32,000 nucleotides of DNA from Thermosulfuriphilus ammonigenes (GTDB taxonomy: Bacteria > Desulfobacterota > Thermodesulfobacteria > Thermodesulfobacteriales > ST65), in contig NZ_CP048877.1 of the NCBI RefSeq assembly GCF_011207455.1, positions 84,576 through 116,575 of the forward strand. The letters are read 5' to 3'. Position numbers and translations under genes: made by a program. Shown in pieces: positions 1-23,264 of this stretch. The notes beneath the pieces were generated by a model. That model had not been told where the DNA came from. It saw only the letters and a list, made by a program, of their open reading frames with translations, and did no database searches. Numbering within the stretch: position 1 is the stretch's first letter; each line of letters begins with the position of its first letter.

Positions 1-92
1 CTCTGGCTTCGAGGACGAAAAGTCTTCTTTCTGGCGCTAACAGACATGGTCTCTAAAATTTACAAATTTACAAATTTGTTAAAGAATACCCC

Positions 93-116
93 AAAAAAGG
101 CTCCTCGACTAGAGGA
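93..116 (-). terminator. Weak hairpin plus T-run downstream of the ModA-like gene (possible terminator)
   Basis: On the minus strand, TCCTC (116-112), loop tagtc and GAGGA (106-102) are followed by gcc and TTTTTT (98-93). The stem is only 5 bp, which is weak for a thermophile. Confidence 0.3.
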
Positions 117-156
117 AAAGACCCTAATTAGAAACGGCCCCTAAAAAATCTTTCTC

Positions 157-1011
157 TTAAGAGCCGGTAAATTCGGGAACAAATCCGTAGTTGGCGTAAA
201 TTTTTTGGGCCTCACGTCCTTTGATGAAGTTCAGAAATTTCTGGGCCGCCTCGGGGTTTCGGGCCTTTCGGAGGCTGGTAATGTAGTAGTTGACTTTATC
301 CCTTTGATCAAGGGGGGCACCAGGGTCAACCATCTCTAAGGGAAGACCCCGACGCTGGGCCTCAATGACCTCTGTAGCCCAGACCGGACCCACATCACAG
401 ACACCTTCAAGTAGCCGTTTGGGCGTTTCTCGATGATGAACCACCGTAAGAAGGGTGGTGCCAAGGCTCCGTTTCTCCTCCATGATTCTGTGAACCAGCT
501 CCTCTCCGCCGGCCTGTCGATACATTTCGAGGATATAAGTAGCGATGTCTTCAAACTCTGGGTTGGGCTGGCTTATGCGGACATCTTCCCGGGCCAAATC
601 GGCAACTTCTCTTATATCTTTGGGGTTTCCCTGGGGAACCATAAGGACTATTCGGTTATGGAGGTAGATAAAGTAGTCTTCCGGTTGGATAAGGCCAATT
701 TCGCTGAGACGTTCCATAGCTTCAAGGGATACCGAAGCATAAACATCTGGTATTCCAGGGATGAGGCGTCCTTTAAAGAGGGCTCCACCGGCCAGGATCT
801 GTTTGAGTTCCAGTCTTGGAGGAAGGGTTTCATAGAAGATGCGTTTTATCTCGGGGTGCTTTTTCTGGAAGGCCTCAAGGAGTTCTGGCATGACCATGAA
901 TTGATTGCCGGCCACAAAGAGGATCAAGTCTGCCTCTTCGGCCCATTCAAGACCGTGGAGATCATCACCTCGTTCAGATGGTATTTCTGGCAGTTCCCTA
1001 TCTTTGGCCAT
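157..1011 (-). CDS. Periplasmic-binding-protein-fold protein, ModA/oxyanion-binding-like, lacking a signal peptide
   Basis: The track ORF 157..1017 begins at GTG. The ATG at 1011 lies 7 nt after AAAGGAGG and is the better start. The sequence looks like a type-II PBP (LILFVAGNQ, VYASVSLEAM, ISQPNPEFEDIATY, C-terminal AQKFLNFIKGREAQKIYANYGF). The N-terminus MAKDRELPEIPSERGDD is acidic and hydrophilic, so no export signal is present. Confidence 0.6.
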   Translation of the reverse strand: MAKDRELPEIPSERGDDLHGLEWAEEADLILFVAGNQFMVMPELLEAFQKKHPEIKRIFYETLPPRLELKQILAGGALFKGRLIPGIPDVYASVSLEAMERLSEIGLIQPEDYFIYLHNRIVLMVPQGNPKDIREVADLAREDVRISQPNPEFEDIATYILEMYRQAGGEELVHRIMEEKRSLGTTLLTVVHHRETPKRLLEGVCDVGPVWATEVIEAQRRGLPLEMVDPGAPLDQRDKVNYYITSLRKARNPEAAQKFLNFIKGREAQKIYANYGFVPEFTGS

Positions 1012-1041
1012 CCTCACACCTCCTTTGGGGGATGGCCTATT

Positions 1042-3351
1042 TTAGTAAAAAACCTTACCCTTTGTCAGGCACCTTTTTACACGACAGTTATGAAGATGTT
1101 TGCGAATGAAGCCGATCAGGTGCCTTTGAGTAAAGGGTTTTTGAATAAAACCATCGGCGCCGAGGGAGAGGAGCTTCTTGGCCGGGCCGTCGCTGGAGTA
1201 GCCAGTACAGATGATGATTTTGGCCTCAGGGGCCGCCTCGCGGAGGAGGGGGTAGAGATCCACGCCGTCCATCTCTGGCATGGCGATATCAAGAAGGATG
1301 AGGGCCGGCTTCTTACCCGTCAAATATAGGGCTTCACGAGCATTCTGGGCCGTGTCCACCAGAAAGCCGAAAGGCTCCAAATATTCTTTGATGACCTCAA
1401 GAACCGCGGGATCATCGTCTACTACTAAAATGCGGCAGACATCCCCCTCTTTTTCTTCCAGTTCTTCGGCTCTGTGCTGAACGGCTGTCTGAGGATCAAG
1501 ACTGGGAAGATAAACGAAGAAAGATGTTCCCTTACCCGGCGTGGAATCCACCTGGATATAACCACCATGGTTGGAGATGATTCCATAGACGGCGGCCAGC
1601 CCAAGCCCTCTTCCGGTAAACTTGGTGGTGAAAAAAGGTTCAAAAATATTGGCTAAAGTCTCTTGATCCATACCATGGCCGGTATCTGTAACCTCTAAGA
1701 TAACATAGCGCCCCGGGGAAATATCTCCACACGGGGTATCAAGAGAGCTATTGAAAGTCCGCACGGTCAAGCGACCGCCATTTTCCATGGCCTCTACCGC
1801 GTTGATGATCAGGTTCATAACAACCTGGGCCATCTGAGAGGGATCAGCATAGATTGGCCACAGATCGGGTTCTAAATCTACTTCTAGTTCCACGTTATGG
1901 CCGATGGAACGTTCATTAAGTTTGATAACATCCCGCACAGTTTCGTTGAGGTTTATGACCCGGGGAGCATATTTTCCCCCCCGGGCATAGGCCAGAAGCT
2001 GTTGGGCAAGGCCACTGGCCTGCATGGCGGAGGTAATGATCTTGTCGGCCCGGTCGGCCAGTGGAGAGTCCGAGGGAAGGGCCAACCTGAGGAGTTCGGC
2101 CTGTCCTAATACGGCGGTCATGAGGTTGTTGAGATCGTGAGCCACCCCGCCGGCTAGTCGGGCAATGGATTCCATCTTCTGGGTTTGAAGAATGCGTTCT
2201 TCAAGCTCCTTTCTGCTGGTGATGTCCCGATTACTTCCCCGGATTCCTAAATAACGCCCGTCTTTTCCGTAGACGGGATGGCAGACGTGACCAATCCACC
2301 GCTCGCTTCCATCGGCCCGGATGATGCGGAAGTCTATCTCTTCGGGCTCTCCCGGGGAGGTTCTTTTGGCCCGTCGATGCTCCTGGACTTTTAACCAGTC
2401 ATCAGGATGGATGATGCGATCATAGAGTTCGTGGTCCCTTAAAAAGGCCTCTGGCGGATAACCGGTAATCCGCTCGCAGGCTGGCGAAACATAGATAAAA
2501 TGGCCATCTGGGGCCCGCCAGTACTCCCAGTCGTAAGTAAATTCGGCTACCGTTCGAAAGCGTTCTTCGCTTTCTTTAATGGCCTCTTCTCGTCGGCGGA
2601 GGTCCTCGACCATATTATTGAAGGTCTGAATAAGTTCGGCGATCTCGCCAGTGACATTGTCTTCCGGTACCCGGACATCGAAGTCTCCAGAGCGAAGCTT
2701 TCTGGCTCCATCCACCAGGCGTTTAAGAGGAGAGGCGATCTGTCGGGCCTGATAATAGGCCAGAAGGGCGGCCAGGGCGGCCATAAGGGTATAAGTCCCG
2801 ACAACTAGAGCTAGAAATTCCTTATAGTAGCCAAGAAAGTGCTCCAGAGATAGATCAACCCGCACAAAACCCAGAAGCTCTGGAGGCGATTCGGTGAGCT
2901 CTTCAGACAGAGGAGAAGAGCGTACCGGCTCAAGGAAGATTCTGATTCTTTTCATTCGTGGTTCAAAGTAATCAATGCTGTTTTCTATATCTTTGAAGTC
3001 CTCCAGCATGAGAACCGGGTCTTTATACCTGGTTTTTTTCTTTACAAAGACTACTTGCCCATCTTTGTTGTAGATGACTACCCCGAGGACGCTTTCATCT
3101 TTAAAAAGACCTTTTATAGGGCTGTCGAGATAATCAGATATTCCAGTGAGCAGGGCCACCTCGGCAGGTTGCTGAAGATAATGAAGTATATAGCGTCCCA
3201 TACGTTCTACCAGGATGTCGGCCTGCTTTCGCAAAAGATAGGGGGTAAAGATGGTGGAAAAGAGGGCTCCGGCTACTAAAAAGATGAGATAGCTTATCAG
3301 AAGCTTGGTGCGGCAGCTGTTACTTTTAAAAAGGCTAAAAATATTTTTCAT
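1042..3351 (-). CDS. Hybrid sensor histidine kinase (TM - extracytoplasmic loop - TM - HAMP - PAS - HisKA - HATPase - receiver)
   Basis: 769-aa ORF. TM1 is LLISYLIFLVAGALFSTIF, followed by a loop of about 150 aa and TM2 LALVVGTYTLMAALAALLAYY. HAMP (SPLKRLVDGARKLRSGDFDVRV...IQTFNNMVEDL) and PAS (FRTVAEFTYDWEYWRAPDG...NRDITSRKELEE) follow. The H-box is GGVAHDLNNLMTAV and the ATPase boxes are NLIINAVEAM, DTGHGM and GRGLGLAAV. The C-terminal REC domain is ILVVDDDP...LILLDIAMPEMDG...IQKP. The ATG overlaps the upstream stop as ATGA at 3348-3351. Confidence 0.9.
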   Translation of the reverse strand: MKNIFSLFKSNSCRTKLLISYLIFLVAGALFSTIFTPYLLRKQADILVERMGRYILHYLQQPAEVALLTGISDYLDSPIKGLFKDESVLGVVIYNKDGQVVFVKKKTRYKDPVLMLEDFKDIENSIDYFEPRMKRIRIFLEPVRSSPLSEELTESPPELLGFVRVDLSLEHFLGYYKEFLALVVGTYTLMAALAALLAYYQARQIASPLKRLVDGARKLRSGDFDVRVPEDNVTGEIAELIQTFNNMVEDLRRREEAIKESEERFRTVAEFTYDWEYWRAPDGHFIYVSPACERITGYPPEAFLRDHELYDRIIHPDDWLKVQEHRRAKRTSPGEPEEIDFRIIRADGSERWIGHVCHPVYGKDGRYLGIRGSNRDITSRKELEERILQTQKMESIARLAGGVAHDLNNLMTAVLGQAELLRLALPSDSPLADRADKIITSAMQASGLAQQLLAYARGGKYAPRVINLNETVRDVIKLNERSIGHNVELEVDLEPDLWPIYADPSQMAQVVMNLIINAVEAMENGGRLTVRTFNSSLDTPCGDISPGRYVILEVTDTGHGMDQETLANIFEPFFTTKFTGRGLGLAAVYGIISNHGGYIQVDSTPGKGTSFFVYLPSLDPQTAVQHRAEELEEKEGDVCRILVVDDDPAVLEVIKEYLEPFGFLVDTAQNAREALYLTGKKPALILLDIAMPEMDGVDLYPLLREAAPEAKIIICTGYSSDGPAKKLLSLGADGFIQKPFTQRHLIGFIRKHLHNCRVKRCLTKGKVFY

Positions 3352-4217
3352 TTAGAAATAATTTCTGGCTCCGGGAAAACTTCGGTCTTCAGCCCCATAA
3401 ATTTTAAGGTCTTTTCGTTTATATGGACTTTATACGGAATCTCCGGACAAACAAGCCTTCCAGTTTTAAAGTAATCCTTTAAAACCTTTCGGCACTGAGA
3501 GAGAAGAAACTCAAAATCGTAGTCCACTGAGAGGAGGGCTCCCAGGCGAACAGTACTCCGAGAAGGACCGATGATAGGTTTTTTGTAAATAAACCCCTGG
3601 CGAATGATATTTTCAAAAACTGCCCGGCGTAGGAGTAGGGGATCAGGTAGCAGAAGGAAGGCCTCACATTCTTTAATGACTTCAGAGACAGCCCGAATGA
3701 TCTCCTCAGGCCCGGCACGGCGCGAAATTAATTCTATTCCTAGTGTCTGGGCCGCCCTTTCGGCCTCTTTATAATAAATCTGGCTCCTGGATGTATATAT
3801 GAGACCTATTCTTTTGAACTGGGGAAATATTTGATGGACTTTTTCCAATACTAAAGAAGGAGGCGTAAAAAGTCTGACCTCACAGTCTCTATTCTTTTGG
3901 GCTTCCTGAATAATCAGGGGATTGGAAATCAAAAGAAGAATCTTACGGGAGCTAAGGGCCTGGCAGTTGTAAGAGGCTAGGTCACCCAAGGCAATGACTA
4001 AGGAAGGGGTAATTCCCCCCAAACGGCTCTGGTTTCCCTTGTTTCGACTATCGAGGGCCAAGAGATGTATTCGGTCGCCGAATTCTCCTTCAATCGTCTG
4101 GGCTATTTTCTGGTAAAGGGCGACGTCCTTTCGATAGACAATCAAAATCTCTTCAGCTGCTTGAGAGGAGCAGACCAGAGAGAACAAGAATACAGGCAGA
4201 AGAATCCGTAAAATCAT
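3348..4217 (-). CDS. Orphan periplasmic substrate-binding protein (ABC_sub_bind / PF04392-like) with signal peptide
   Basis: The track ORF extends to 4241. The ATG at 4217 shares one base with the receptor stop (TGATG) and gives a clean signal peptide, MILRILLPVFLFSLVCSSQA/AEE. The body resembles the BMP/PF04392 binding-protein family (RIGLIYTSRS, AFLLLPDPLL, GALLSVDYDF). No permease or ATPase gene is adjacent. Confidence 0.65.
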   Translation of the reverse strand: MILRILLPVFLFSLVCSSQAAEEILIVYRKDVALYQKIAQTIEGEFGDRIHLLALDSRNKGNQSRLGGITPSLVIALGDLASYNCQALSSRKILLLISNPLIIQEAQKNRDCEVRLFTPPSLVLEKVHQIFPQFKRIGLIYTSRSQIYYKEAERAAQTLGIELISRRAGPEEIIRAVSEVIKECEAFLLLPDPLLLRRAVFENIIRQGFIYKKPIIGPSRSTVRLGALLSVDYDFEFLLSQCRKVLKDYFKTGRLVCPEIPYKVHINEKTLKFMGLKTEVFPEPEIISK

Positions 4218-6265
4218 CAAAAAGTCCAGCTCAGGCGGCAATCAATGGTCCTTCCTGGCCGCAGAAAGTCATCGGGAAAGCGATTGTTGGGATCCGGATA
4301 GCGATAGTGTTTATCAAATAGGTTGTGGACAGAAAGGCTGATCTCCCAATGGGGTTTGAGGAACCGGAAACATACATCTGTAATCCAGTAGGATCCCAGC
4401 CCTGTTCCTATCCTTTGGCCAACATAATTGACCGTAAAGTTAAGGTTCATGGTGGGACGGAGACGCCAGTTGAAAATCATCGTTCCCAGGTCCCTAGCAG
4501 ACCCTGTAAGAGGCGTATGATCCTTATAACGGCTGTCTTGATAAGAGTAGTTCAGTTTTAAATAGTTAAATCTCCCTAGCCCCCAGCGGAGGCGACCTTC
4601 AAGTTCCACACCGACGGTTCTGGCCCGGGCCCGGTTTTCAAAAAGGGTAGTCTGGGGATTAACCATGATTAGATCCTTATAGTCATGGCGAAAGAAAGTG
4701 GTCGAAAGGCTCAGATCGCTAAAAGGGAGATACTCAAGGGCTAGCTCATAGGCCACCATATGCTCTGCATCCAGGTTTGGATTTCCCTTTCGGGGGGACT
4801 CCACGCAGCTTTGGAGATAAAGTTCACAGAAGGAGGGGGCCCTAAGACCATGTCCATAGAGAAACTTGACAAAGGTCTTTGAGGTGGGGCTGATAACTAA
4901 CCCCCCTCTTAAGCTAAGGTCCCGGCCAACGTCATCATAGTAGTCAAACCGTCCTCCCAGGGTAAGTCGGGCCCAATAGACAGGGCTCCATTCTTCTTGG
5001 AGGTAAACAGAGGTGTGGAAGCGATCGGCCCCTTTAATCCAGGGATAGGGGACCTCACGAAGATATGGAAAATTATTGGTCAGACAATAGTTACTCAGGG
5101 TGCGAATCTGACCCAGGCTACTTTGATTGGCCTCTAGACCAAGGGTGATCCGGTGGCCACTTAAGCGGCTGGTTAGCCGCCCCTCTAAACCGTATTCTTG
5201 AATCTGAGCCCTTCTTTCCCGCCGCCAACCATAGGGATAGGTGGTTCCCTGGACCGTTATCCCCGGTGGATAATAGTCCAAAAAGTGTTGATACCAGAGG
5301 TGGCTAGAATATATGCCCAGTCGGGCCTCAAAAGGGCCAAAATGATCCTCGTAGCGAAGCCTACCCCAGAGAAATTTACGGGTTGGCCGGGTACCATTGG
5401 TTCTAGTGACAGCCCCACTGTAGTTGTAATAACCACCATCGGCATGATTTAGATACTGGGCCTCTAAGATAAAAGGTCCCCGCCTTAAACCGGCATAGAT
5501 CTCCCAACGTCTGAACCACTCCTGACTACGTCCTGGTACCTGGGAGACAGTTTGGTTGGTGGGATCCTGGCTTAGATAATCACGAAAGATGGGAAGATTG
5601 GCTCCGTTACTGTCTCGATAACTAAAGCTTCCCCAAAATCTTGTCTGGCCATCTCCTTGAGCCCCGGTAAAAAATATCTCGTCAGAGTCAAAGCTTCCTC
5701 GCCGATAGGAGACCTTGGGGGAGGGGGAGCGGGAGAGGATGATATTTACTACTCCGACAAAGGCATCAGAGCCATAAAGGGCAGAGCCGGGCCCCCTGAT
5801 TATCTCTACTCGGTCAATGGCCTCTACCGAAAGATCGGCAAAAAAGAACGTCCCGCCGGCGATAATGGGGCTATTTACCGGTTGGCCATTGATGAGGAAT
5901 TTGACACTCTTGCTCCCAAAGGAGTTGATCCCCCTCATCGTGATCACCGGCAGGCCGATACTATCCAGAGAGACCTCAAGATCCGGGACTGTCCGCAAAA
6001 CATCAAGGAGATTGCGGGCCCCCATGTTGCGAATCTCCTCAGCCGAGATTACGGTTACGGTTGCCGGGGCTAGATATCGCTCTTGGATATAACCAGTGGC
6101 CACCTCGGCCACATCCAAAAAGAGCAGTTCCTGGCAGGCGATTTCCTCCTTCTGGGAGGGGGAACAGATGTCTTTTCCGGCAAGGCTGAAATAAGGGAAG
6201 AAAAGAATTGATATTAGCGTTGTCAGGAATATATAAATCCTGTGGTTTGCCATTTTATTAAACAT
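4217..6265 (-). CDS. TonB-dependent outer-membrane receptor
   Basis: 682-aa ORF with a signal peptide (FFPYFSLA/GKD). Plug-domain motifs are TVISAEEIRNMGARNLLDVLRTVPDL, ITMRGINS and IDRVEIIRGPGSALYGSDAFVGVVNII. A long Tyr/Gly/Arg-rich barrel region follows, and the protein ends in an aromatic residue (RLSWTF). Confidence 0.9.
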   Translation of the reverse strand: MFNKMANHRIYIFLTTLISILFFPYFSLAGKDICSPSQKEEIACQELLFLDVAEVATGYIQERYLAPATVTVISAEEIRNMGARNLLDVLRTVPDLEVSLDSIGLPVITMRGINSFGSKSVKFLINGQPVNSPIIAGGTFFFADLSVEAIDRVEIIRGPGSALYGSDAFVGVVNIILSRSPSPKVSYRRGSFDSDEIFFTGAQGDGQTRFWGSFSYRDSNGANLPIFRDYLSQDPTNQTVSQVPGRSQEWFRRWEIYAGLRRGPFILEAQYLNHADGGYYNYSGAVTRTNGTRPTRKFLWGRLRYEDHFGPFEARLGIYSSHLWYQHFLDYYPPGITVQGTTYPYGWRRERRAQIQEYGLEGRLTSRLSGHRITLGLEANQSSLGQIRTLSNYCLTNNFPYLREVPYPWIKGADRFHTSVYLQEEWSPVYWARLTLGGRFDYYDDVGRDLSLRGGLVISPTSKTFVKFLYGHGLRAPSFCELYLQSCVESPRKGNPNLDAEHMVAYELALEYLPFSDLSLSTTFFRHDYKDLIMVNPQTTLFENRARARTVGVELEGRLRWGLGRFNYLKLNYSYQDSRYKDHTPLTGSARDLGTMIFNWRLRPTMNLNFTVNYVGQRIGTGLGSYWITDVCFRFLKPHWEISLSVHNLFDKHYRYPDPNNRFPDDFLRPGRTIDCRLSWTF

Positions 6266-6424
6266 TTTAATTTTACATTATTTGTAACTCACAAAGAAAC
6301 TCCTTTCAACTCATCTTAAGTAAGCTCTTTTTGTATAAGTCGGTTTCAATAAGATATAACTTAAGAGGAAAATATCATATTTGTTCTTCTAACCTCAAAA
6401 ATGGTGAATCAAAGCTTTCTGGAT

Positions 6425-8285: not shown

Positions 8286-8346
8286 GGCTTCTTTTAGACA
8301 GAAACCCTATTAAAGACAAGTTTAAGGAGATCTGAAAGGGGGAGGC

Positions 8347-8374
8347 GAGCGGGGCGGGGGGAGTCGCCCCGCTC
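8347..8374. other. Very stable GC-rich hairpin in the divergent spacer between the MBL hydrolase and reverse gyrase genes
   Basis: GAGCGGGGCG (8347-8356) and CGCCCCGCTC (8365-8374) are exact reverse complements. This gives a 10-bp stem (9 G:C pairs) with an 8-nt loop, gggggagt. No T-run follows on either strand. Confidence 0.5.
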
Positions 8375-8523
8375 TCTAAGGGGCTGTTGGGTGCTTGCCT
8401 TTGTTTCTGATAAGAAAGCAGACTCCGTGCCACTTTTATTCTGTTTAAGGTAACCTTGAGGAGGTCTCTTTGCCGGAAATAATTCTTGATAAGGCCTTTC
8501 TGACTGTCAGCCTTTTGACAGAG

Positions 8524-8549: not shown

Positions 8550-8593
8550 CTGGTACCTTCCTTATGCTATTTAGCCCCCTAGAGGAGGAGACA

Positions 8594-11500
8594 ATGACCC
8601 TTTTTATTTTGGCCCATGGCTGTCCCAATTGTCGGGGGGCTATAGATGATAACCGCCTGACCAGAGGTTTTCCCTGTGAGGCCTGTCTTCCTCGGGCCGA
8701 TAACGGAGTCTGTGAGAGCTTAAAGAAATCAGGAAAGCTTAAGTCCCTTTCGGTTTATTGTCAGGCCAGGGATCTAGCTCAAAATTTTGAGGCCCAATTC
8801 GTTCGAGCCCTGAAAGGCCCTCCTTCTAGAATCCAGCTCTCCTGGGCCTTAAGGCTTTATCTGGGAGAATCCTTTGCCATTGTAGCTCCAACCGGAGTAG
8901 GGAAGACCACCTTTGGTCTTATGGCCTCTCTTCTAGAGCCTGGGAAGGTTCTGATCCTTGTTCCTACCAGACTTCTGGCCGATCAGCTGGGAGGACGTCT
9001 GGAAAAAATGGCCCAGGCGGCGGGACTCAGGCGGCAAATTCTTGTTTATCGGAGCCGCAAGGCAGAAAGACAACGATTGGAGACCGGAAATTTTGACATA
9101 TTAGTGGCCACTACAGCCTTCTTTTACCGGCGTTTTGCTGCCCTTTCAGCCTTTTCCTTCCGGCTGATCTTTATCGATGATGTAGATTCCTTTCTTAAAC
9201 GGTCTTCCCAGGTGGATCTCCTCTTTAAACTTCTTGGCTTTGATGAAGAAGAGATCGCCCTAGCAGTAAAGTTAAGACTAACAGCCGAGGAGGAGCGACG
9301 TTTGGAAGAGGCCCGAAGACGTCTAAGAGACCGAACTCTCATTGTCTCCTCGGCCACCCTCCGTCCCCGGACAAACCGGCTCCTTCTCTTCCGCCGTCTG
9401 CTTGGTTTTGAGATCCAGCGGGCTACAAGCACTCTGAGACGAATAGAAGATACATATCTGGAATTTCCTTCCTATGAGACGGCCCTTAAGAAAGTTCCTA
9501 ATCTGGTGCATCATCTGGGGGGCGGAGGTCTTCTTTTTTTGGCTGGAGATCTGGGGCGGGAGGCGGTAGAAGAGGCTGCTTCTTATCTTCGAAATCAAGG
9601 CCTGTCGGTCCTCTCCTACCTTGAGCTCTCCCCTGAAAGACTCTATGAGGAGATGAGCCGGGGAGACTTTCATCTGGCCCTGGGGCTGGCTCATCCTACC
9701 AACCCCCTTGTCCGGGGGATCGATCTCCCCCAAGTCCTTCGTTATGTTCTTTTTTTAGGGGTTCCTAAATATCTCATCCCTACCAAGTTAACCTTGGCTC
9801 CAAGGATGCTCCTTCTGGTTCTTCAGGCCCTGATGCCTCTTTTGGAGGACAAAGAGCGCTCTCAGGCCTTGGCCGATATTATTTACCTTAGGCGATATCA
9901 AGGGGTAAAAGAAGAGGCCCTGGAGCGTTATCCCCGGCTTAAAGAAAGGTTTACAACCATAAGGAATCGCCTTTCGGATCTCCTCAAAGACGAGAAGTTC
10001 CTGTCCAGGTTACGGCAGAGCCCAGAAGTCTTTGTTGAGGAGCGTGATGGGGAGCTCTTTCTAATAGTGGCCGATACTACCTCCTATCTTCAGGCCTCAG
10101 GTCGGGTCTCTCGCCTCACGGTGGCTGGTCTTACCCAGGGTCTTTCCGTGATTTTGAGTTGGGAACCAAGGGCCCTGACCAGTTTGAAAAGGCGTCTCCG
10201 TCTTTTAGGGCAGGAGGTAACCTTAAAGCCCTTTGAATCCGTGGATCTTGAGAGACTCCTGGAGACCATAGACAAAAGTCGGCAGGCCGTTTCTTCTTCC
10301 GGGGCCCCAGATCTTTTCCGGACCACTCTTGTGGTGGTGGAGAGCCCCCACAAGGCCCGAACCATTGCCTCTTTTTTTGGTCGGCCTACAGCGCGTCGAA
10401 TAAGGGAATCCCTGGCCTACGAGATTCCCCTTGAGGATCGAATCCTGGTAGTTACCGCTAGCCTTGGTCATCTGGTCAATCTTTCACGACTTAAGGGAAT
10501 CTTTGGGGTCATAAAGGAGGGAAATCGCTTCTTACCTATCTACGATACCATCAAAATCTGCCGGACTACGGGAGAAGAACTGATAGATCCTGAGGAAACC
10601 AAGGATTGTCCTCCGGGGGAGCTTTGGGACAAGGCTGATCTTGTGGCTGGCCTTCAACACCTGGCCTTCTGTGCTGATGAGGTCTTGGTGGCTAGTGATC
10701 CCGATGCTGAGGGGGAAAAGATTGCCTATGATCTCCAGGCCTTCCTTCGCCCCTTTCAAAAAAACATTTATCGCTTAGAGTTCCACGAAGTGACGCCCAG
10801 GGCCCTAAGGGAGGCCCTTAAGTCCCCTGGCCAGTTTAAAACCTCCCGGGTCAAGGCCCAACTTACCCGCCGTTTGCTTGACCGCTGGGTGGGATTCGGT
10901 CTTTCCCGTCAGCTCTGGAAAACCTTTGGTCGCCGGGGGCTTTCCGCCGGTCGCGTTCAGAGCCCGGTTCTGGGCTGGATAATAGAAAGGGCTCTTGAGG
11001 CCCGTCAAAAAAAGGCCCGCCTAGAGTATCTCTTAGGGGATAGAAGACAGGTACTGGAGATAGAAGACATTTCTCTGGCCAAACGCCTCTTTGAAGCCCT
11101 TCCTGCCGCTAAGATTCAGGTGCTAGAAAGAGGCCAGGAATTTAAACACCCTCTTCCTCCCTTTACCACAGACCTCATTCTTGAAGAGGCCAACCGTCGT
11201 CTTCGCTTTTCAGCTCGCCAAACCATGGCCTTGCTTCAAGAGCTCTTTGAGACCGGTCTGATTACCTATCACCGCACAGACTCCACCCGGGTCTCTGAGT
11301 ATGGTCGTCTTCAGGTGGCTCGTCCTTACATTGTGGAGACTTTGGGAGAGGAGTTTTTTTATCCTCGGGGTTTTTCCGAGGAGGGAGCCCATGAGGCCAT
11401 TCGTCCCACCCGACCAGAGCCTTCTGAGAGACTGCGGCTTCTTCTGGCCGCAGGCCTCCTTGAACTTAAGGATCCCGAAGCGGCTTTAAGCCTTTATGAC

Positions 11501-12046
11501 CTTATTTTTCGCCGCTTTATGGCCAGCCAGATGAGACCATCGGAGGTGGAGGTGGCCCGGCTTCGTTTTGAGCTTGAGGGGTTCAGTTGGGAAGAGTCAG
11601 TAGTTACCAAAGTTCTTAGACCGGGGTTTGAACAGCTATGGCCAACATTTTTCCCTCTAAAAGGGGAGGATTTCCGTCCCCATCCCCTGAATTTTCGTCT
11701 TGTTCCTCGCAAGTCCCCTTTTAGCCAGGGAAGCCTTATCCGGGAGATGAAGGAGCGGGGCCTTGGTCGCCCTTCGACTTATGCCGAGATAATAAATACT
11801 CTGCTGGCCCGTGGCTACATAGTGGAGCGCCGGGGCTTACTTTTCCCTACGGCCTTGGGGAAAAGAGTTTATCGCTTTCTTAAAGAGCATTATTCCCACT
11901 TAACCGATGAGGAACTGACCCGTCAGGTCGAAGCCGCCATGGATCATATCGAAGCCGGAGAGTTAAGCTGGCAAGAGGTTGTCAGAGAGGCCTATCAACG
12001 GCTTCGTCCTCTTTTAGAGGCGGTAGGTGATCACTCCAAGACTTAA
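8594..12046 (+). CDS. rgy: Reverse gyrase (helicase-like domain fused to type IA topoisomerase)
   Basis: The track ORF starts at 8564. The ATG at 8594 follows GAGGAGGAG by 4 nt. An N-terminal Zn finger (CPNCRG...CEAC) precedes the helicase Walker A (APTGVGKT) and motif II (FIDDVD). The Toprim region includes VVVESPHKA and DPDAEGE. The topo IA active-site region is ITYHRTDS. The length of 1150 aa is typical for the family. Confidence 0.95.
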   Translation: MTLFILAHGCPNCRGAIDDNRLTRGFPCEACLPRADNGVCESLKKSGKLKSLSVYCQARDLAQNFEAQFVRALKGPPSRIQLSWALRLYLGESFAIVAPTGVGKTTFGLMASLLEPGKVLILVPTRLLADQLGGRLEKMAQAAGLRRQILVYRSRKAERQRLETGNFDILVATTAFFYRRFAALSAFSFRLIFIDDVDSFLKRSSQVDLLFKLLGFDEEEIALAVKLRLTAEEERRLEEARRRLRDRTLIVSSATLRPRTNRLLLFRRLLGFEIQRATSTLRRIEDTYLEFPSYETALKKVPNLVHHLGGGGLLFLAGDLGREAVEEAASYLRNQGLSVLSYLELSPERLYEEMSRGDFHLALGLAHPTNPLVRGIDLPQVLRYVLFLGVPKYLIPTKLTLAPRMLLLVLQALMPLLEDKERSQALADIIYLRRYQGVKEEALERYPRLKERFTTIRNRLSDLLKDEKFLSRLRQSPEVFVEERDGELFLIVADTTSYLQASGRVSRLTVAGLTQGLSVILSWEPRALTSLKRRLRLLGQEVTLKPFESVDLERLLETIDKSRQAVSSSGAPDLFRTTLVVVESPHKARTIASFFGRPTARRIRESLAYEIPLEDRILVVTASLGHLVNLSRLKGIFGVIKEGNRFLPIYDTIKICRTTGEELIDPEETKDCPPGELWDKADLVAGLQHLAFCADEVLVASDPDAEGEKIAYDLQAFLRPFQKNIYRLEFHEVTPRALREALKSPGQFKTSRVKAQLTRRLLDRWVGFGLSRQLWKTFGRRGLSAGRVQSPVLGWIIERALEARQKKARLEYLLGDRRQVLEIEDISLAKRLFEALPAAKIQVLERGQEFKHPLPPFTTDLILEEANRRLRFSARQTMALLQELFETGLITYHRTDSTRVSEYGRLQVARPYIVETLGEEFFYPRGFSEEGAHEAIRPTRPEPSERLRLLLAAGLLELKDPEAALSLYDLIFRRFMASQMRPSEVEVARLRFELEGFSWEESVVTKVLRPGFEQLWPTFFPLKGEDFRPHPLNFRLVPRKSPFSQGSLIREMKERGLGRPSTYAEIINTLLARGYIVERRGLLFPTALGKRVYRFLKEHYSHLTDEELTRQVEAAMDHIEAGELSWQEVVREAYQRLRPLLEAVGDHSKT

Positions 12047-13540: not shown

Positions 13541-14368
13541 ATGGAAGAAGTTAACCGCCGCTTTGGTTTCGATACCTTAAAGGCTATAGAGGATGAACTT
13601 GCCAAGATTCACCCCATTTCTCCTTATGTCTTTGAAGTCCTAGAAGCTGCTCAACGGGATGATATTTCCCTTCTTGATCTAGGAAGGCGCCTCAGTTTTG
13701 ATCCGGTTATATGTGCTCATTTGTTGCGAGCCTGCCGTTCGGCCGCTTATGGGATTCGCTTCCCTGTAGAATCCCCCCTTCATGCTGTGGCCCTCCTGGG
13801 AGCTGAAAGGGTTATTCAGATTGTCCTCTCCCTGACTATTAAGGAGCAGATAGGGGTTTTTCTGGCTTCAAGTTTTGAGCATGAGGTCTGGGAACACTCC
13901 TTGGCCGTGGCTTTCGGTATCCAGGGAATGATCAGGCTTTTAAACTCCCCCCTGAGCTTGGCCGTAGGATTTACAGCTGGTCTTCTTCACGATCTGGGTA
14001 AACTCGTTCTATATCGAGCCAGCGGTGGCGATCCGGATTTGGCCCAGGCCCAACTAAAAGGGGGAGAGGTGGGACTTAAAGCGGAAAGGGAGCGCTGTGG
14101 CAAAGATCATATCCAGATTATGGCCTCCATCCTTGAACAGTGGGCCCTGAGTAATGAGATAAAGCAGGCCATTTTAGAACATCATCTTTCCCCTAGAGAG
14201 ATGAAGACCTCCCTTGGCCGATTTCTCCTTTGGTCCCATTATCTGGCCCGTAAGGCCCGCCACGAAAGAGAAGATGGCGAACCCCCTCCCTTAAAAAACA
14301 AAGACCTTCAACAACTTGTGGGTTGGATAAGGCTCGAACTGGAGGCCTTAAGCTGTTTCTTCAGTTAA
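13541..14368 (+). CDS. HDOD domain protein (stand-alone)
   Basis: 275-aa ORF. It shows an HDOD-like pattern (PISPYVFEVLEA, ICAHLLRACRSAAYG) and a degenerate HD region (AGLLHDLGKLVL). Confidence 0.8.
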   Translation: MEEVNRRFGFDTLKAIEDELAKIHPISPYVFEVLEAAQRDDISLLDLGRRLSFDPVICAHLLRACRSAAYGIRFPVESPLHAVALLGAERVIQIVLSLTIKEQIGVFLASSFEHEVWEHSLAVAFGIQGMIRLLNSPLSLAVGFTAGLLHDLGKLVLYRASGGDPDLAQAQLKGGEVGLKAERERCGKDHIQIMASILEQWALSNEIKQAILEHHLSPREMKTSLGRFLLWSHYLARKARHEREDGEPPPLKNKDLQQLVGWIRLELEALSCFFS

Positions 14369-15862: not shown

Positions 15863-16298
15863 ATTTGACTATCAGAACAGGAATCTCCGAGAATTCGATC
15901 ACCCTTTCAGCCACGCTACCCAGGAGAATACTTCTTACTCCCCGACGCCCCAATTTTCCCATAACAATGAGTTCCGCCCCCCAGGTATCAGCCTCAGCCA
16001 GGATTTCCTCATGAGGGGTCCCTTGGGTAATAGCCACTTCTATAGGTATGGCCTCTTTCTGGGCCTCCTGCTTCATATCTGCCAGGAAGCCACAGGCCTC
16101 CTGATAAAGGGCTTCCCGAATGGTTTTTTTATCTTTGCTTGAAAAACGGACCAGTTGTTCAAATACTGAAGTATCAAGAACATGGAGAAGCTTGATCTCT
16201 GAACGATGAATCTTGGCCAACTGGGCGGCTAGTTTGACAGCATCTAGAGAATAGGGAGAATTATCCACCGGAACGAGGATACGTCTAAAGAGGGCCAT
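15861..16298 (-). CDS. Universal stress protein (UspA family)
   Basis: 145-aa ORF with ILVPVDNSPYS and the ATP-binding-type tail GKLGRRGVRSILLGSVAERVIEFSEIPVLIV. Its start overlaps the atpD 3' end by 14 nt. Confidence 0.9.
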   Translation of the reverse strand: MALFRRILVPVDNSPYSLDAVKLAAQLAKIHRSEIKLLHVLDTSVFEQLVRFSSKDKKTIREALYQEACGFLADMKQEAQKEAIPIEVAITQGTPHEEILAEADTWGAELIVMGKLGRRGVRSILLGSVAERVIEFSEIPVLIVK

Positions 16299-16923
16299 AA
16301 GCGGCCTCCTTTCGGCCTTTTAGACGTTTAAGTTGGAAAAGGGCCTCCCTTTCTTTTTCTTCAAGGCTTTCCTGAATATGTCTGACGGTGGCCTGATAAA
16401 GGGGAAGATAAATGTTTTCTAAGGCATTGAGCCGACGAATGGTCTTGCGGATTTCGGCTACAAGCCGAAAAAGTCCTACCTCTAGTTCGGCCAGCTCGGC
16501 TATCGTTTCTAAGGTCTCTCTGATTATGACTCCTGTGATATCCATGGCCATTCCTGTCTCCTGGAGTCCGTAGGCTGGTCTAGCAGGAGAAAACTCTATC
16601 TTTACTAAAGGCAACACGACTCCCATGAAACTCCGTTCTCTAATCTGAACCCTTTCATTAAGGACGTTTGAGAGAGCGGCCCTCTCACAGGCTAACCGAC
16701 CATGGAAGAGGAGGGCCTGATCCAAAAACGCATAGGCCTCAGCCAGGGATCGATTCAAGTGCTGGCGCAGGCGATGGGCCTTGGTGGAAAGAATGCTTAT
16801 CTGTCCCATGAGGGCCTCTTTTTTCTGATCAAGGAGATCAAGGCCCTCTCGGGCAAAGGAAAGCTCTTCCTTAAGGCGAATGAGATTACTCTTGGTGGCC
16901 GGGATATTTAGTCTTTCGGCCAT
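16285..16923 (-). CDS. atpD: V/A-type ATPase subunit D (central stalk)
   Basis: 212-aa coiled-coil ORF. The N-terminus [33 protein letters not shown] is typical of subunit D. It overlaps the atpB 3' end by 16 nt. Confidence 0.9.
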
Positions 16924-18311
16924 CGGTCTCTTCCCTTTTGACCGTATTGAATGATTTCTTCTGGTTTGACTCTAGAGAGCTCTCTTTCCGGAAGAATCAT
17001 GGCCAGCTGCCAGCCGAGATCCAGAGTGGTAAAAATGGATCGATTCTCTTGAGGCCCTTGGTTGATAAACTTTTTTTCAAACTCACGAGAAAAACTAAGG
17101 TACCGTTTGTCAAGTTCGGAAAGGTCCTCTTCGCCTATAATAGCTGCTAAACGTTCTATTTGTTTAGATCGAGCGTAGAGGGCATAGAGCTGGCTGGCTA
17201 GATTACGATGATCTTCCCGAGTGTGTCCTTTACCAATACCATCAGCCATAAGGCGGGAAAGGGAAGGTAGAATGTTAATGGGAGGATATATTCCTTTTTG
17301 AAAAAGTCCACGGTCAAGAACAATCTGCCCCTCGGTAATATAACCGGTAAGGTCTGGGATGGGGTGGGTAATATCGTCATCAGGCATAGTTAGGATAGGA
17401 ATTTGAGTGATGGATCCTTTGGCCGTACGGATCCGGCCGGCCCGTTCATAGATGGAGGCCAGATCACTGTAAAGATACCCCGGGTAACCTTTACGACTGG
17501 GCACCTCTCCCTTAGAGGTAGAGACTTCCCTTAAGGCCTCACAATAATTGGTCATGTCTGTAAGAATTACCAAGACATGTCTATCTTCCTCATAGGCCAG
17601 ATATTCAGCTACCGTAAGGGCTATACGAGGAGTGATGAGCCTCTCAATGGAAGGGTCATCGGCTAGGTTAAGAAACATAACCACGTTTTTAAGGCGGCCG
17701 CTCTCCTCGAAGTTCTCTCTAAAAAAATCCGCCTGTTCATGTTTTATACCCATAGCTGCAAAGACAATGGCAAAGGATTCTTCCTCCTTGAGGAGCCGGG
17801 CCTGGCGAACTATTTGGGCCGCTAGCTCGTCGTGTGGAAGACCGCTTCCAGAAAAAATGGGAAGTTTTTGGCCGCGGACAAGGGTATTAAGGCCATCAAT
17901 GCTTGAGATTCCCGTCTGAATAAAATCTTGGGGATAGACTCTAGCTACCGGATTAATGGGAAGGCCATTAACATTACGAGGTTGCCCTATCACCGGAGGT
18001 GGCCCTCCATCAAGGGGGCGTCCCAGACCATCAAAGACTCTTCCCATGATCTCTTCTACCGAAACCCGAAATTCAAAGGGCCTTCCCAAAAAGCGAATCT
18101 TTGTTCTAGTGATGGAGAGCCCCACCGTACCCTCAAAAATTTCTAAAACCGCAGCCTCTTCAGAAACTGCCAGGACCCGGGCCAGTCTGACCCGTCCGGT
18201 CTCATCTGTAACCTCGGCCATCTCATGGAATCCCACTCCCTGGACTCCTTTTATCACCACTAAAGGCCCCTGGACCTTCTCCAGGCCGATATACTCTACA
18301 GAACCCTTCAT
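16908..18311 (-). CDS. atpB: V/A-type ATPase subunit B
   Basis: 467-aa ORF with [39 protein letters not shown] (degenerate P-loop), [17 protein letters not shown] and [16 protein letters not shown]. Its ATG overlaps the atpA stop as ATGA. Confidence 0.95.
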
Positions 18312-20080
18312 GTGATTTCTCCGGTAGCCAGGAGATCATCAAAATCATGGTCTATTTTATGGAGAATTTCCTCAAAAGGTCCCAGGTCATCGCCAGAATA
18401 AGTGAACTTCATGCGGTGTATTTCCTCGAGCACCGGTAGTTTCATAAGGCGATAAACGGGAATTCGTTTGGCTACGGCCTCTTTCATGCGTCGGATAAAA
18501 CGAAGAATGATCTCCAACATGATGATTTGTTTTTCAGCCGGGCAATAGGTGTCTATGGGATCAAAGGCGCTCTGCTGAAGGAAATCCTCTTTGATAAGTC
18601 TGGCTGCTTGAATGATTACCTTTTGGTCATCGGGAAGGGCGTCTTCACCAATGAGTTTGACAATGTTTTGGAGTCTGGCATCCTCTTTAAGGATAGAGAG
18701 GGCCTCCTCTCGGGCGGCTAAGAAGTCAAACTTTCTCTTATCCTCCCACCAACGAGCTACTGAGGCCACGTACCCGCTGTAGCTGGTGAGATAATTTATG
18801 GCCGGAAAATATCGGGCACTAGCCAGTTCCTTATCAAGGGCCCAAAATGTGGCCACAAAACGCTTGGTATGCTGGGTGACTGGTTCCGAAAAGTCGCCTC
18901 CCGGAGGTGAGACAGCCCCGATTATTGAAACCGACCCCTTTTTTCCGGCTAGGGTTTCAGCAGGTCCAGCCCTTTCGTAGAATTCAGCCAACCTAGAGGC
19001 CAAATAGGCTGGAAAACCTTCCTCTGCAGGCATCTCCTCCAGACGACCCGAGATTTCCCTCAAGGCCTCAGCCCAGCGGCTGGTGGAATCAGCCATAAGG
19101 GCTACATGATAACCCATATCTCGGTAGTATTCGGCTATTGTAACCCCGGTATAGATGCTGGCCTCCCGGGCAGCTACTGGCATGTCTGAAGTATTAGCAA
19201 TGAGAATAGTTCGCTGGATAAGGGGTTGTTTGGTGCGCGGATCCAGGAGACGAGGGAAATCGGTCAGGACCCCGGTCATTTCATTGCCTCGCTCACCACA
19301 GCCAATGTAAACGATAATGTCTGCGTCAGCCCATTTAGAAAGCTGATGTTGGGTAACGGTCTTGCCTGTGCCAAATCCTCCGGGAATGGCTGCTGTTCCT
19401 CCCTTGGCTAAGGGGAAGAAGAAGTCTATCACTCTTTGTCCCGTGAAGAGGGGTTCTTCCGGACGAAGACGCCTTTTGATCGGCCGGGGTTGCCTTACTG
19501 GCCAGCGTTGGTAGAGTCGAATCTCGTCTTGTCGGCCATTGTGTTCAATTAAAGCCAGGCGATCTTCCAGACTATAAAGACCTTCAGGAGCGATCCAGAT
19601 CAGGCTTCCTTGCAGGGAGGGAGGGACCATCACCTGGTGAGTAATCCAGTCTGTCTCCTTTACCTCCCCGATTATCTCTCCGGGGAGCACCTTCTGTCCA
19701 ACCTTAGCCAGAGGTTTGAAAGGCCAGACCTTTTCTCGGGACAGGGCGACAGCAGCCTTGCCCCGATGGATAAAGGCGCCACTGGTTTCATAAAGAGAAG
19801 TCAGGGGGCGCTGGATTCCATCAAAGATGTGACCTATCAAACCCGGTCCCAACTCCACAAAGAGGGGAATTCCTTGCCCAAAGATAGGGTCCCCAGGCTT
19901 CAGTCCGGTGGTATCCTCATAAACCTGAATGGTGGCCTGATCTTCCCAGAGCTCGATGACTTCGCCTACTAAACGTTCTTGGCCGATCTCTACCATTTCG
20001 TTCATGGACAGTTCCTGGGCCCTTTTTGCTTTGACCACCGGACCGCTGACATAGATGATGGTTGGGTTAGCCTCCCTCAC
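18308..20080 (-). CDS. atpA: V/A-type ATPase catalytic subunit A
   Basis: The track ORF runs to 20191. Homology-like sequence starts at [15 protein letters not shown] at 20080 is preceded by GGGAGGG 5 nt upstream and gives 590 aa. The Walker A motif is [10 protein letters not shown], and [22 protein letters not shown] and [21 protein letters not shown] are also present. Confidence 0.95.
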
Positions 20081-20675
20081 GGACGCCCTCCCAGATTTGG
20101 CGCTGGATTGTCTCCTTGAGTCGCTGGAGACGGGCCTCAACCGTGTTGTCATAAAGGATGCGGCCATCAGCAGTATAAACCTGAAGACCACCGCTTATGT
20201 GGGGATCTTTCTCAAGGTCTATGCTTGCTCCCCTCTTTTGGGCCAGTTCCTTAAGTCGTCTCTCAAATCTTTGGTCTTCTGGATTAAATCTGACTATAAA
20301 ATTCTTCCCCGGAAGGGCATCCATGGCCTCTTTTAAGGCCCTTTCCATAAAGGATTTGTATTCTGGATGGTGGCGGATGTCTTTTAAGGCCCTCTGCAGT
20401 TCCTCCATGGCCTCGCGAACTATGGTCTCTCTGGTGGCAACGATCGTCTTTCTAGCCGCCAGCTCGGCGGCGTCGATAATCTTTTGAGCTTGAAAATGGG
20501 CCTCGGCTCTTTGACGTTGGCTTTCTTCTTCAAGTTCCCGTTGGATCCTTTCCTGAATGTCCTTCAGCTCCGCTTCGGATCTGGTGCGGGCTTCAAGAAG
20601 GATCTTTTCCGCCTCACGCTGGGCTTCTTCTTTTATGGCATGGCAAAGAAGTTCTATTTCTCCACCAATAAGCAT
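20067..20675 (-). CDS. atpE: V/A-type ATPase subunit E (peripheral stalk)
   Basis: 202-aa ORF. A charged N-terminal coiled coil (EEAQREAEKILLEARTRSEAELKDIQER) precedes a globular C-terminal domain. Its position directly upstream of atpA supports the call. Confidence 0.8.
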   Translation of the reverse strand: MLIGGEIELLCHAIKEEAQREAEKILLEARTRSEAELKDIQERIQRELEEESQRQRAEAHFQAQKIIDAAELAARKTIVATRETIVREAMEELQRALKDIRHHPEYKSFMERALKEAMDALPGKNFIVRFNPEDQRFERRLKELAQKRGASIDLEKDPHISGGLQVYTADGRILYDNTVEARLQRLKETIQRQIWEGVREGG

Positions 20676-20677
20676 CT

Positions 20678-20974
20678 TTATCCCTTAAGTAGGGCGGCAA
20701 TTCTCTCTGTAACACCCGCTCGGGGTCGAGGTCCTTTATAATCTGGGATCTCAACGATCAGAGGTCCGCCAGGACGGAGAAGAATATTGTCCACTAAGAG
20801 GCGATTTTCTTCGGCCAAAGACTCAGTGATTAGGACTAGGGAGACTTCGGAAGGTAGATTCTGCAAGGCTTCTTGGGCCTCAGCCCCGGAGCGAACAATC
20901 TGACCAGCCATCCCCGCCAGGGCAAAGGCCAGATAAGTTCGCTCGTCGGCAATGACGTAAATTTTACCAGACAT
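20678..20974 (-). CDS. atpF: V/A-type ATPase subunit F
   Basis: The track start at 20977 is TTG. The ATG at 20974 shares one base with the atpK TGA. The sequence KIYVIADERTYLAFALAGM...LVLITESLAEE is typical of subunit F. Confidence 0.8.
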   Translation of the reverse strand: MSGKIYVIADERTYLAFALAGMAGQIVRSGAEAQEALQNLPSEVSLVLITESLAEENRLLVDNILLRPGGPLIVEIPDYKGPRPRAGVTERIAALLKG

Positions 20975-21267
20975 CAAAGGCGAGTCAGGATCATAATGGC
21001 CACTATGAGGCCGTATATAGCAATTCCTTCAGCCAATCCCAGAAAGATAATTGCCCGTCCGGCAAGTTCTGGTCGTTCGCTGATAGCCCCCATCGCCGCT
21101 GAGCCTACGATGGCTACTGCCAGACCAGCACCCAGGCTCGAGGCCCCTACTGCAATGGCCGCAGCTAAAAAGCCTAGGCCCTCACCTGATTCACCAGGAC
21201 TTCCGGCCATGGCTGGTGAGGCCCAGATGAGGATGGCCATCAACAAGATCCAAATCAGAGTCTTCAT
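20974..21267 (-). CDS. atpK: V/A-type ATPase proteolipid subunit K/L (single hairpin, c-ring)
   Basis: The track ORF extends to 21342, overlapping atpI. The ATG at 21267 follows GAGGGGG. A signal-like N-terminal helix (MKTLIWILLMAILIWASPAMA) precedes two Gly/Ala-rich helices carrying the carrier glutamate in GLAEGIAIYGL. The layout resembles Thermus subunit L. Confidence 0.85.
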   Translation of the reverse strand: MKTLIWILLMAILIWASPAMAGSPGESGEGLGFLAAAIAVGASSLGAGLAVAIVGSAAMGAISERPELAGRAIIFLGLAEGIAIYGLIVAIMILTRL

Positions 21268-21280
21268 ATTTTCCCCCTCA

Positions 21281-23263: not shown

Positions 23264-23264
23264 C

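Follow-up and report, generated by a model that had tools for sequence, protein, structure and literature searches.

Four consecutive genes on the minus strand of the genome of Thermosulfuriphilus ammonigenes, which encode a TonB-dependent receptor, a periplasmic binding protein, a hybrid histidine kinase and a cytosolic protein of the ModA fold in this order, raise the question of whether they work together, and whether as a sensor or as an uptake system. The host is a thermophilic sulfur bacterium of Thermodesulfobacteriaceae, and the window, i.e., the whole stretch of DNA analyzed here, comprises 32,000 nucleotides (positions 84,576 to 116,575 of contig NZ_CP048877.1). An earlier note, made from the letters alone, had proposed a four-gene sensory module spanning the envelope. 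Our answer is that the first three genes (6265-1042) probably constitute a three-component envelope-spanning sensor, consisting of a receptor, a binding protein without a transporter and a hybrid kinase; the fourth gene, judged by its surroundings in other genomes, is a neighbour outside the conserved module.

The four open reading frames (ORFs) are located at 4217..6265 (receptor, 682 amino acids), 3348..4217 (binding protein of family PF04392, 289 amino acids), 1042..3351 (kinase, 769 amino acids) and 157..1011 (ModA-fold protein, 284 amino acids), all on the minus strand. Their coordinates and junctions, as given in the earlier note, were read directly: the receptor stop TGA (4219-4217) has its A in common with the ATG of the binding protein (4217-4215), forming TGATG; the stop of the binding protein and the start of the kinase share the letters ATGA (3351-3348); and the kinase stop at 1042 is followed by AAAGGAGG and then by the ATG at 1011, leaving a gap of 30 nucleotides before the fourth gene. 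A GTG at 1017 is rejected as the start of this gene because it is too near the ribosome-binding site. Overlapping stop and start codons are a common operon trait and alone are not beyond chance; the arrangement is significant because of how often the order recurs, not because of the overlaps.

To describe this recurrence, relatives of the binding protein were examined in 12 related loci with readable contigs (L numbers below), where the domain calls rest partly on single-sequence phmmer queries. A membrane transducer with two transmembrane (TM) helices is the directly next same-strand gene to the binding protein in 11 of these 12 loci, its output varying among histidine kinase, kinase-REC-Hpt, GGDEF-EAL and MCP, and no ATPase of the ATP-binding cassette (ABC) type was found in any of them. 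The receptor gene is placed directly upstream of the binding-protein gene in L003, L005, L009, L015, L024, L048 and L083. The locus of Thermosulfuriphilus sp. (L003) is syntenic with the window throughout. Receptor and binding protein are followed by HAMP-HisKA and REC-HD proteins in L005, by HAMP-kinase-REC-Hpt and REC proteins in L009, by an sCache_4-HAMP-PAS-GGDEF-EAL protein in a betaproteobacterium (L015), by an sCache_4-HAMP-kinase-REC-REC-Hpt protein in Nitrospira (L024), and by a HAMP-kinase in L048. The order is binding protein, HAMP-MCP and receptor in a member of Desulfococcaceae (L031), and the binding protein is followed by a HAMP-GAF-kinase in L007, by a kinase and a REC-GerE protein in L008, and by a HAMP-GGDEF-EAL protein in L010. 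The sole exception is L083 of Rhodocyclaceae, with a receptor and a binding protein, where no transducer was found. The trio order thus recurs in Thermodesulfobacteriota, Nitrospirota, Betaproteobacteria, Desulfobacterota and metagenomic lineages; such triplets, which the earlier note had mentioned for other genomes, are found in distant phyla, and on these gene orders we regard receptor, binding protein and kinase as a conserved unit. As a separate observation, the kinase 3' of the binding protein in L005 (8989-10621) is broken into four ORFs (345, 93, 93 and 41 amino acids), which suggests that this metagenomic contig has frameshifts, a pseudogene or errors of assembly.

The domain assignments proposed beforehand for all four proteins agree with Pfam. 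The receptor matches Plug PF07715 at 4e-23 and the TonB_dep_Rec barrel PF00593 at 6e-33, with the plug at 6070-5750 and the barrel at 5479-4220 (minus strand); its signal peptide (residues 1-29, 6265-6179) and its C-terminal Phe were read directly in the sequence. Between signal peptide and plug, the stretch QELLFLDVAEVATG (6133-6092), which aligns with a motif of the receptor clade described below, resembles a TonB box and is probably that of this receptor; VAEVATG in the receptor aligns with ETVITAG and VEVTSVS of relatives. The NCBI annotation begins the receptor 51 codons downstream (631 amino acids) and drops the signal peptide, and we favour the start giving 682 amino acids because the SLAGKD cleavage region is conserved in the sister species. 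No NCBIfam subfamily was over its cut-off for the receptor, the best being the TOL_0244 family with 140 of 645 bits, and the STN signalling extension had no Pfam match in it.

Relatives of the receptor were collected by searching a single genome of each species with the receptor alignment as seed, the best 80 of at least 600 pattern matches were taken, and the genes downstream of these 80 receptors were classed by custom profiles and checked with Pfam. The next gene encodes a DUF4154 protein of about 190 amino acids resembling YfiR/HmsC in 29 of the 80, a PF04392 protein in 4 and a kinase in another 4, so that 37 of the 80 closest relatives (about 46%) carry the trio, the YfiR-type sister arrangement or a kinase directly. 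Among the top 17 matches, an adaptor or kinase arrangement is present in 11 of the 14 loci that can be evaluated. DUF4154 was matched in 8 of 8 YfiR-like proteins put to Pfam, with L027 under the gathering score. A transducer comes next in at least 22 of the 29 YfiR-like loci, either a CHASE8-HAMP sensor or another type; the usual form is CHASE8-HAMP-kinase-REC-(REC)-Hpt, and one is CHASE8-MCP. Judged by these downstream genes, the receptor belongs to a clade mostly wired to sensors. Arrays of receptor, DUF4154 protein and CHASE8-HAMP sensor were recorded in L012, L013, L016, L022, L023, L036, L039 and 22 other loci, and the arrays of receptor, YfiR-like protein and CHASE8 sensor span Acidobacteriota, Nitrospirota, Proteobacteria, Desulfobacterota, WOR-3 and other phyla. 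Receptors of the clade (in L011-L090) have the motif L-S-L-E-E-L-M-x-V-E-V-T-S-x-S-K between signal peptide and plug, which could act as an extended TonB box or be the place where the periplasmic adaptor docks; the motif is present too in some receptors without an adjoining sensor.

The binding protein scores 29.0 bits with PF04392, for which the cut-off is 25.9. An ORF listing extends it to a TTG at 4241, and the ATG at 4217 yields a proper signal peptide, MILRILLPVFLFSLVCSSQA (4217-4158, minus strand). An exhaustive HMMER search gave 2285 cluster representatives at E<1e-3 and only the protein itself at E<1e-30, a word-indexed protein search gave few relatives, and tblastn against plasmids gave no match. 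The AlphaFold2 model (predicted local distance difference test, pLDDT, 89.8) has 3LFT, 6HNI/J, 3LKV and RmSBP as its best PDB matches in Foldseek, the family profile matches PDB 3LKV at 2e-41, and on this model the protein has a two-lobe class I fold. It represents a divergent branch of PF04392. It reaches only 20 of 390 bits against the NCBIfam model of TrpX. No permease (BPD_transp_2) or ABC ATPase adjoins it in the window or in the 10 kb beyond, where the sequence past position 1 was read from the full contig JACDUQ010000003.1 (GCA_013761125.1; L001); the canonical TrpX-type PF04392 member P0169, taken as a positive control, has genes for a BPD_transp_2 permease and an ABC ATPase after it. 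Because transducers follow the members of the branch, ABC genes are absent and the canonical member has them, the branch is probably a signalling accessory rather than a transporter part. The view that the binding protein is not a transporter component is thus borne out past position 1 as well as in the related loci. Solved PF04392 proteins hold small ligands, aromatic amino acids, in their cleft, and these structures, together with the ligands reported for PahP (see below), give by analogy a weak hint of an aromatic ligand class. Single-lobe relatives of PF04392 beside chemoreceptor genes have already been reported in the literature.

In the kinase, Pfam detects HAMP (2748-2596), PAS (2511-2206), HisKA (2160-1978), HATPase_c (1845-1501) and Response_reg (1431-1111) domains. 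Its TM helices, at residues 17-35 (3303-3247) and 179-197 (2817-2761), enclose a periplasmic loop of 143 amino acids (3246-2818; all minus strand), which has no Pfam family at E<=1. The catalytic motifs are intact, namely His405 (2139-2137), the N513 box, DTGHG at 556 (G1), GRGLG at 580 (G2), and Asp688 (1290-1288) and Lys738 in the receiver, and the kinase is predicted to be catalytically competent. An Hpt domain had no Pfam match in it even at E<=1, and is present in the kinases of relatives in L009, L012, L024, L036 and L039. Since the triplet in relatives often feeds HD-GYP or GGDEF-EAL outputs, an HDOD protein (13541-14368, plus strand), a second histidine kinase (24629-26188, minus strand) and an HD_5 (HD-GYP-like) protein (28128-29408, minus strand) in the window are listed as candidate downstream partners.

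Profile comparisons connect the binding protein and the kinase loop of this locus with YfiR and its sensors. The C-lobe of the PF04392 branch aligns with YfiR-like proteins in hhalign (probability 68%, E 5e-5, 123 columns), and YfiR is a single-lobe protein related to PF04392 in structure. The loop profile of the window and L003 aligns with the other loops associated with binding proteins (probability 86%, E 5e-6, 122 columns), and these in turn with the CHASE8 loops of YfiR-associated sensors (probability 97%, E 2e-10); this relatedness holds whatever output domain the transducer has. No window protein had a direct match to DUF4154 or CHASE8, and the link of the window kinase to CHASE8, as traced by these profiles, is indirect, via the loops associated with binding proteins. 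CHASE8 and sCache_4 are members of a Cache-like clan (PMC8846402), and CHASE8 is the sensor domain of YfiN, which is the target of YfiR (PMC8085984). With moderate confidence, we regard adaptor and loop as a conserved pair and the output domains as freely swapped, and this is the pattern expected if the adaptor docks on the loop.

In the mechanism we favour, the TonB-dependent receptor would bind an external ligand and admit it across the outer membrane using TonB. The two-lobe PF04392 protein, a full-size relative of YfiR without a transporter partner, would act as co-sensor, taking the ligand at the receptor and then docking on the Cache-like loop of 143 amino acids; this docking would switch autophosphorylation at His405 and transfer to Asp688 of the receiver, and a partner encoded outside the trio would carry the signal on. 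The outputs in relatives are an Hpt relay, cyclic di-GMP (c-di-GMP) turnover or chemotaxis. Gene anatomy, domains, the recurrent order, the lack of ABC genes and the kinship of the loops are shown by the data; from them we infer the passage of the ligand, its hand-off, the docking and the direction of the switch.

Several observations weigh against this reading. No receptor is found beside the binding protein in L007, L008 and L010, and the receptor is therefore a frequent member of the unit and not an obligatory one. The window kinase has no match to Hpt, CHASE8 or sCache_4, unlike many relatives. Pairwise phmmer comparisons between the periplasmic loops of the transducers were not significant, and the hhalign comparisons of loops are built on small alignments. 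The receptor counts, moreover, describe the best 80 relatives out of the larger number of pattern matches.

The main rival, which we consider unlikely while giving it more weight than the others, is a switch of partners in the manner of YfiBNR, in which no ligand is captured: the periplasmic protein would hold the kinase loop in one state, a loaded or TonB-energised receptor would sequester it and so release the kinase, and the cleft would not be a ligand clamp. It is favoured by the YfiR-like proteins that fill the same slot in 29 of the 80 related receptor loci, which are one-lobed and incapable of flytrap closure, by the action of YfiR, which works by sequestration at an outer-membrane protein (PMC4655355), and by PahP, the binding protein of the published PahS/PahP/PahK system, which is reported on the receptor PahS in the resting state (PMC10570129). 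However, neither the lobes nor the hinge have been lost in the window binding protein or anywhere in its branch, the cleft of solved PF04392 proteins accommodates small ligands, and PahP itself is reported to bind ligand (PMC10570129). The published PahS/PahP/PahK model combines ligand capture and partner switch.

The four-gene version, in which the ModA-like protein would be a cytoplasmic station of the same pathway, e.g., a target of the receiver or an intracellular sensor of the same ligand, is improbable in our view. The short gap of 30 nucleotides, a strong ribosome-binding site and the lack of a terminator between kinase and ModA-like gene are in its favour, as is the same four-gene order in Thermosulfuriphilus sp.; this locus is, however, syntenic across the whole region and does not count as independent evidence. 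The ModA-like gene probably is co-transcribed with the kinase gene in Thermosulfuriphilus, and it has a promoter-like site of its own at 1068-1039. The protein matches SBP_bac_11 at 5e-37 and stays under the cut-off of the modA equivalog TIGR01256 (45.5 against 62.5), and its AlphaFold2 model (pLDDT 86.7) has ModA, WtpA and the sulfate-binding SubI as nearest structures, so that on the model it resembles ModA in fold only. Neither a signal peptide nor a hydrophobic N-terminus was found in it or in its 29 aligned orthologs, and no modBC genes were found near it here or at three ortholog loci. More than 2000 homologs have 64-77% identity over the full length, the mean column identity of the 30 aligned proteins is 73%, and the invariant motifs (AGNQFMVM, YLHNR, SQPxP, VHHRETP, DVGPVW.TE and DQR) are rich in His, Arg and Asn. 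Its orthologs stand alone in Desulfobacterales, Thermodesulfobacterium hydrogeniphilum and another lineage, where SecDF, a NiFe hydrogenase maturation gene and an Obg-like GTPase are the neighbours, none of the other triplet loci has a ModA-like gene, and its position beside a kinase was seen in Thermosulfuriphilus only. Because near-identical orthologs stand alone elsewhere and the other triplets are without it, the gene appears to be a neighbour outside the conserved module, and neighbourhoods thus rule the protein out as a module member. Consequently, the idea of a four-gene module is abandoned, and what is conserved across phyla is the order of the trio and not that of all four genes. The ModA-fold protein looks more like an enzyme or an essential factor than a part of a transporter, and such a highly conserved cytosolic protein poses a separate question for sulfur-cycling bacteria.

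An ordinary uptake locus, in which the receptor and the binding protein would supply an ABC importer with genes at another site and the kinase would regulate the uptake locally, is less likely still, even though the annotation of PF04392 is that of an ABC substrate-binding family and its canonical members serve importers. ABC genes are absent from the 12 related loci and from the 10 kb to the left and right, the genes for binding protein and kinase are coupled in translation, and the partner changes from locus to locus but is a signalling protein throughout. The view that unrelated genes came to lie together by chance is effectively refuted by the recurrence of the trio order in the phyla and metagenomic lineages named above, and we give it hardly any credence.

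The three-component sensor thus preferred is set in the following surroundings. The receptor gene is preceded by an AT-rich spacer (6266..6424, minus strand; 159 nucleotides after the upstream peptidase gene), in which a TTGAAA box is kept in Thermosulfuriphilus sp. and which is a probable operon promoter region by its sequence; a sigma-54 -24/-12 element had no match in this spacer, and matches elsewhere in the window occur at chance frequency. A weak terminator-like hairpin with a T-run, TTCCTCTAGTCGAGGAG CCTTTTTTGG (101..117, minus strand), is placed 3' of the ModA-like gene, between it and the gene for an enhancer-binding protein with GAF, sigma-54 activator and HTH_8 domains, whose first 15 codons occupy 1..47 (minus strand). 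In the full contig this regulator has 524 amino acids (L001:13305-14879; its start is at window 47->1). It keeps the same position in Thermosulfuriphilus sp. and was seen in the two Thermosulfuriphilus loci only; as a candidate module member, it is ruled out by the neighbourhoods of the related loci. It has no receiver domain and is therefore not an obvious phosphorylation partner of the kinase. The regulator is followed by a CCA-adding enzyme, a multihaem cytochrome and housekeeping genes, with no ABC permease or ATPase past position 1. The remainder of the window encodes Maf, TatD, the HDOD protein, a V/A-type ATPase operon, the second kinase, the HD-GYP-like protein and others, and has no ABC transporter, TonB/ExbBD, Hpt or DNA-binding response regulator. 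The description of the gene content given in the earlier note therefore stands for these classes, and requires one amendment at its left end, where a DNA-binding regulator adjoins.

Some further features of the window are recorded here. Reverse gyrase is encoded at 8564-12046 (plus strand), and a complete V/A-type ATPase operon with subunits D, B, A, E, K/c, I, C and G-like at 16285-24625 (minus strand); both are typically found in thermophiles. Scans of the window for Rfam families and tRNAs gave nothing. Between the divergent genes for reverse gyrase and a metallo-beta-lactamase-fold protein, a block of about 68 nucleotides (8336-8403) is about 97% identical to that of Thermosulfuriphilus sp. 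with diverged flanks, and holds a 10-bp GC hairpin (8347-8374; RNA fold z = -3.5); it has no Rfam match, and could represent a leader, a small RNA or a site to which a protein binds. A sigma-54-like -24/-12 element with one mismatch, TGGCACGGAGTCTGCT (8417-8432, minus strand), is located about 130 nucleotides 5' of the metallo-beta-lactamase-fold gene; it is a match of chance frequency, and this stretch is absent from the shorter spacer of the sister species.

Turning back to the trio, we regard it as a representative of a kind already known but poorly characterised, and the wider pattern of receptor clade, adaptor and Cache/CHASE8 sensor as more novel. We tentatively suggest, as quite possible, a large class of cell-surface signalling systems in which this receptor clade replaces YfiB and controls Cache/CHASE8 sensors (kinases, c-di-GMP enzymes and chemoreceptors) via a YfiR or PF04392 adaptor. 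If this is true, the class would be a TonB-energised, ligand-gated route from the outside to two-component, c-di-GMP and chemotaxis outputs, extending from Acidobacteriota to Thermodesulfobacteriota and independent of the paradigm of FecA, anti-sigma factor and extracytoplasmic function (ECF) sigma factor. FecA-type systems aside, how Gram-negative bacteria sense molecules too large or too scarce for porins is largely obscure, and the locus suggests a second, modular route, whose modules are a TonB-dependent receptor, a binding protein of PF04392/YfiR lineage that has no transporter, and a membrane sensor of the Cache-like type. This link predicts that the adaptor binds both the receptor and the sensor loop and that loop and adaptor co-vary. 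The annotation of these proteins as "ABC transporter substrate-binding proteins" calls for correction, since they probably are accessories in signalling. The trio also offers thermostable proteins for structural work.

The sole experimental study of such a trio is that of PahS/PahP/PahK(/PahR) in Cycloclasticus sp. P1, concerning aromatic hydrocarbons (Wang et al., iScience 2023; PMC10570129). The earlier note knew of no triplet member with a defined ligand or mechanism, a statement superseded by this system of the same order, for which both have been claimed. The receptor, binding protein and kinase have 687, 318 and 771 amino acids there, compared with 682, 289 and 769 here, and likewise no ABC transporter, the two loci being likened by order and size alone. 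PahP, described with a three-stranded hinge, i.e., a class I fold, is reported to rest on PahS, to take ligand and then to move to PahK, switching from receptor to kinase in a ligand-dependent manner (PMC10570129). The system differs from the window in that it belongs to a mesophilic gammaproteobacterium, that polycyclic aromatics are claimed as ligands, that the partner of PahK is a GacA-type response regulator encoded elsewhere, and that PahK is described as having no sensor domain in the periplasm; the window kinase has a loop of 143 amino acids there, and its own receiver. The paper names no protein families and draws no link to YfiBNR (PMC10570129), and in the library searched we found no literature linking PF04392, DUF4154 or CHASE8 with TonB-dependent receptors and no description of the receptor–YfiR-like–CHASE8 arrays.

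An orphan periplasmic binding protein beside a kinase is also known from LuxP/LuxQ, TorT/TorS, ChvE/VirA and CBP/ChiS, where it acts on the periplasmic domain of the kinase; those systems differ in having no dedicated outer-membrane receptor gene and binding proteins of other families. The trio is similar to FecA/FecR/FecI in that a TonB-dependent receptor is the first element of a trans-envelope signal path, but the window receptor is without STN, and no anti-sigma or ECF sigma gene was found in the window or the contig flank. Unlike unorthodox kinases of the BarA/TorS type, the window kinase has no C-terminal Hpt. The SusC-like transporters of Bacteroides with hybrid sensors (e.g., BT1754) link a TonB-dependent transporter to a hybrid kinase that senses the imported molecule via a binding-protein fold; the window differs from these systems, which have the binding fold fused to the kinase, a DNA-binding output and catabolic enzymes at the locus. 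A 2021 review of binding proteins in signalling has no example involving TonB.

The closest resemblance in mechanism is to YfiB/YfiR/YfiN (TpbB), left unmentioned in the earlier note, and to HmsE/HmsC/HmsD; these systems likewise consist of an outer-membrane protein, a periplasmic protein and a two-TM HAMP sensor. The differences are that the outer-membrane partner is a 22-strand TonB-dependent receptor here and an OmpA/Pal-like lipoprotein in YfiB, that the window adaptor is two-lobed and without a DUF4154 match, and that the output is a hybrid kinase without a CHASE8 or GGDEF match and not a diguanylate cyclase. The sensor loops of the relatives are akin to CHASE8, and YfiR is a one-lobe relative of PF04392. 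By analogy, YfiB/YfiR/YfiN is the best mechanistic paradigm for the trio.

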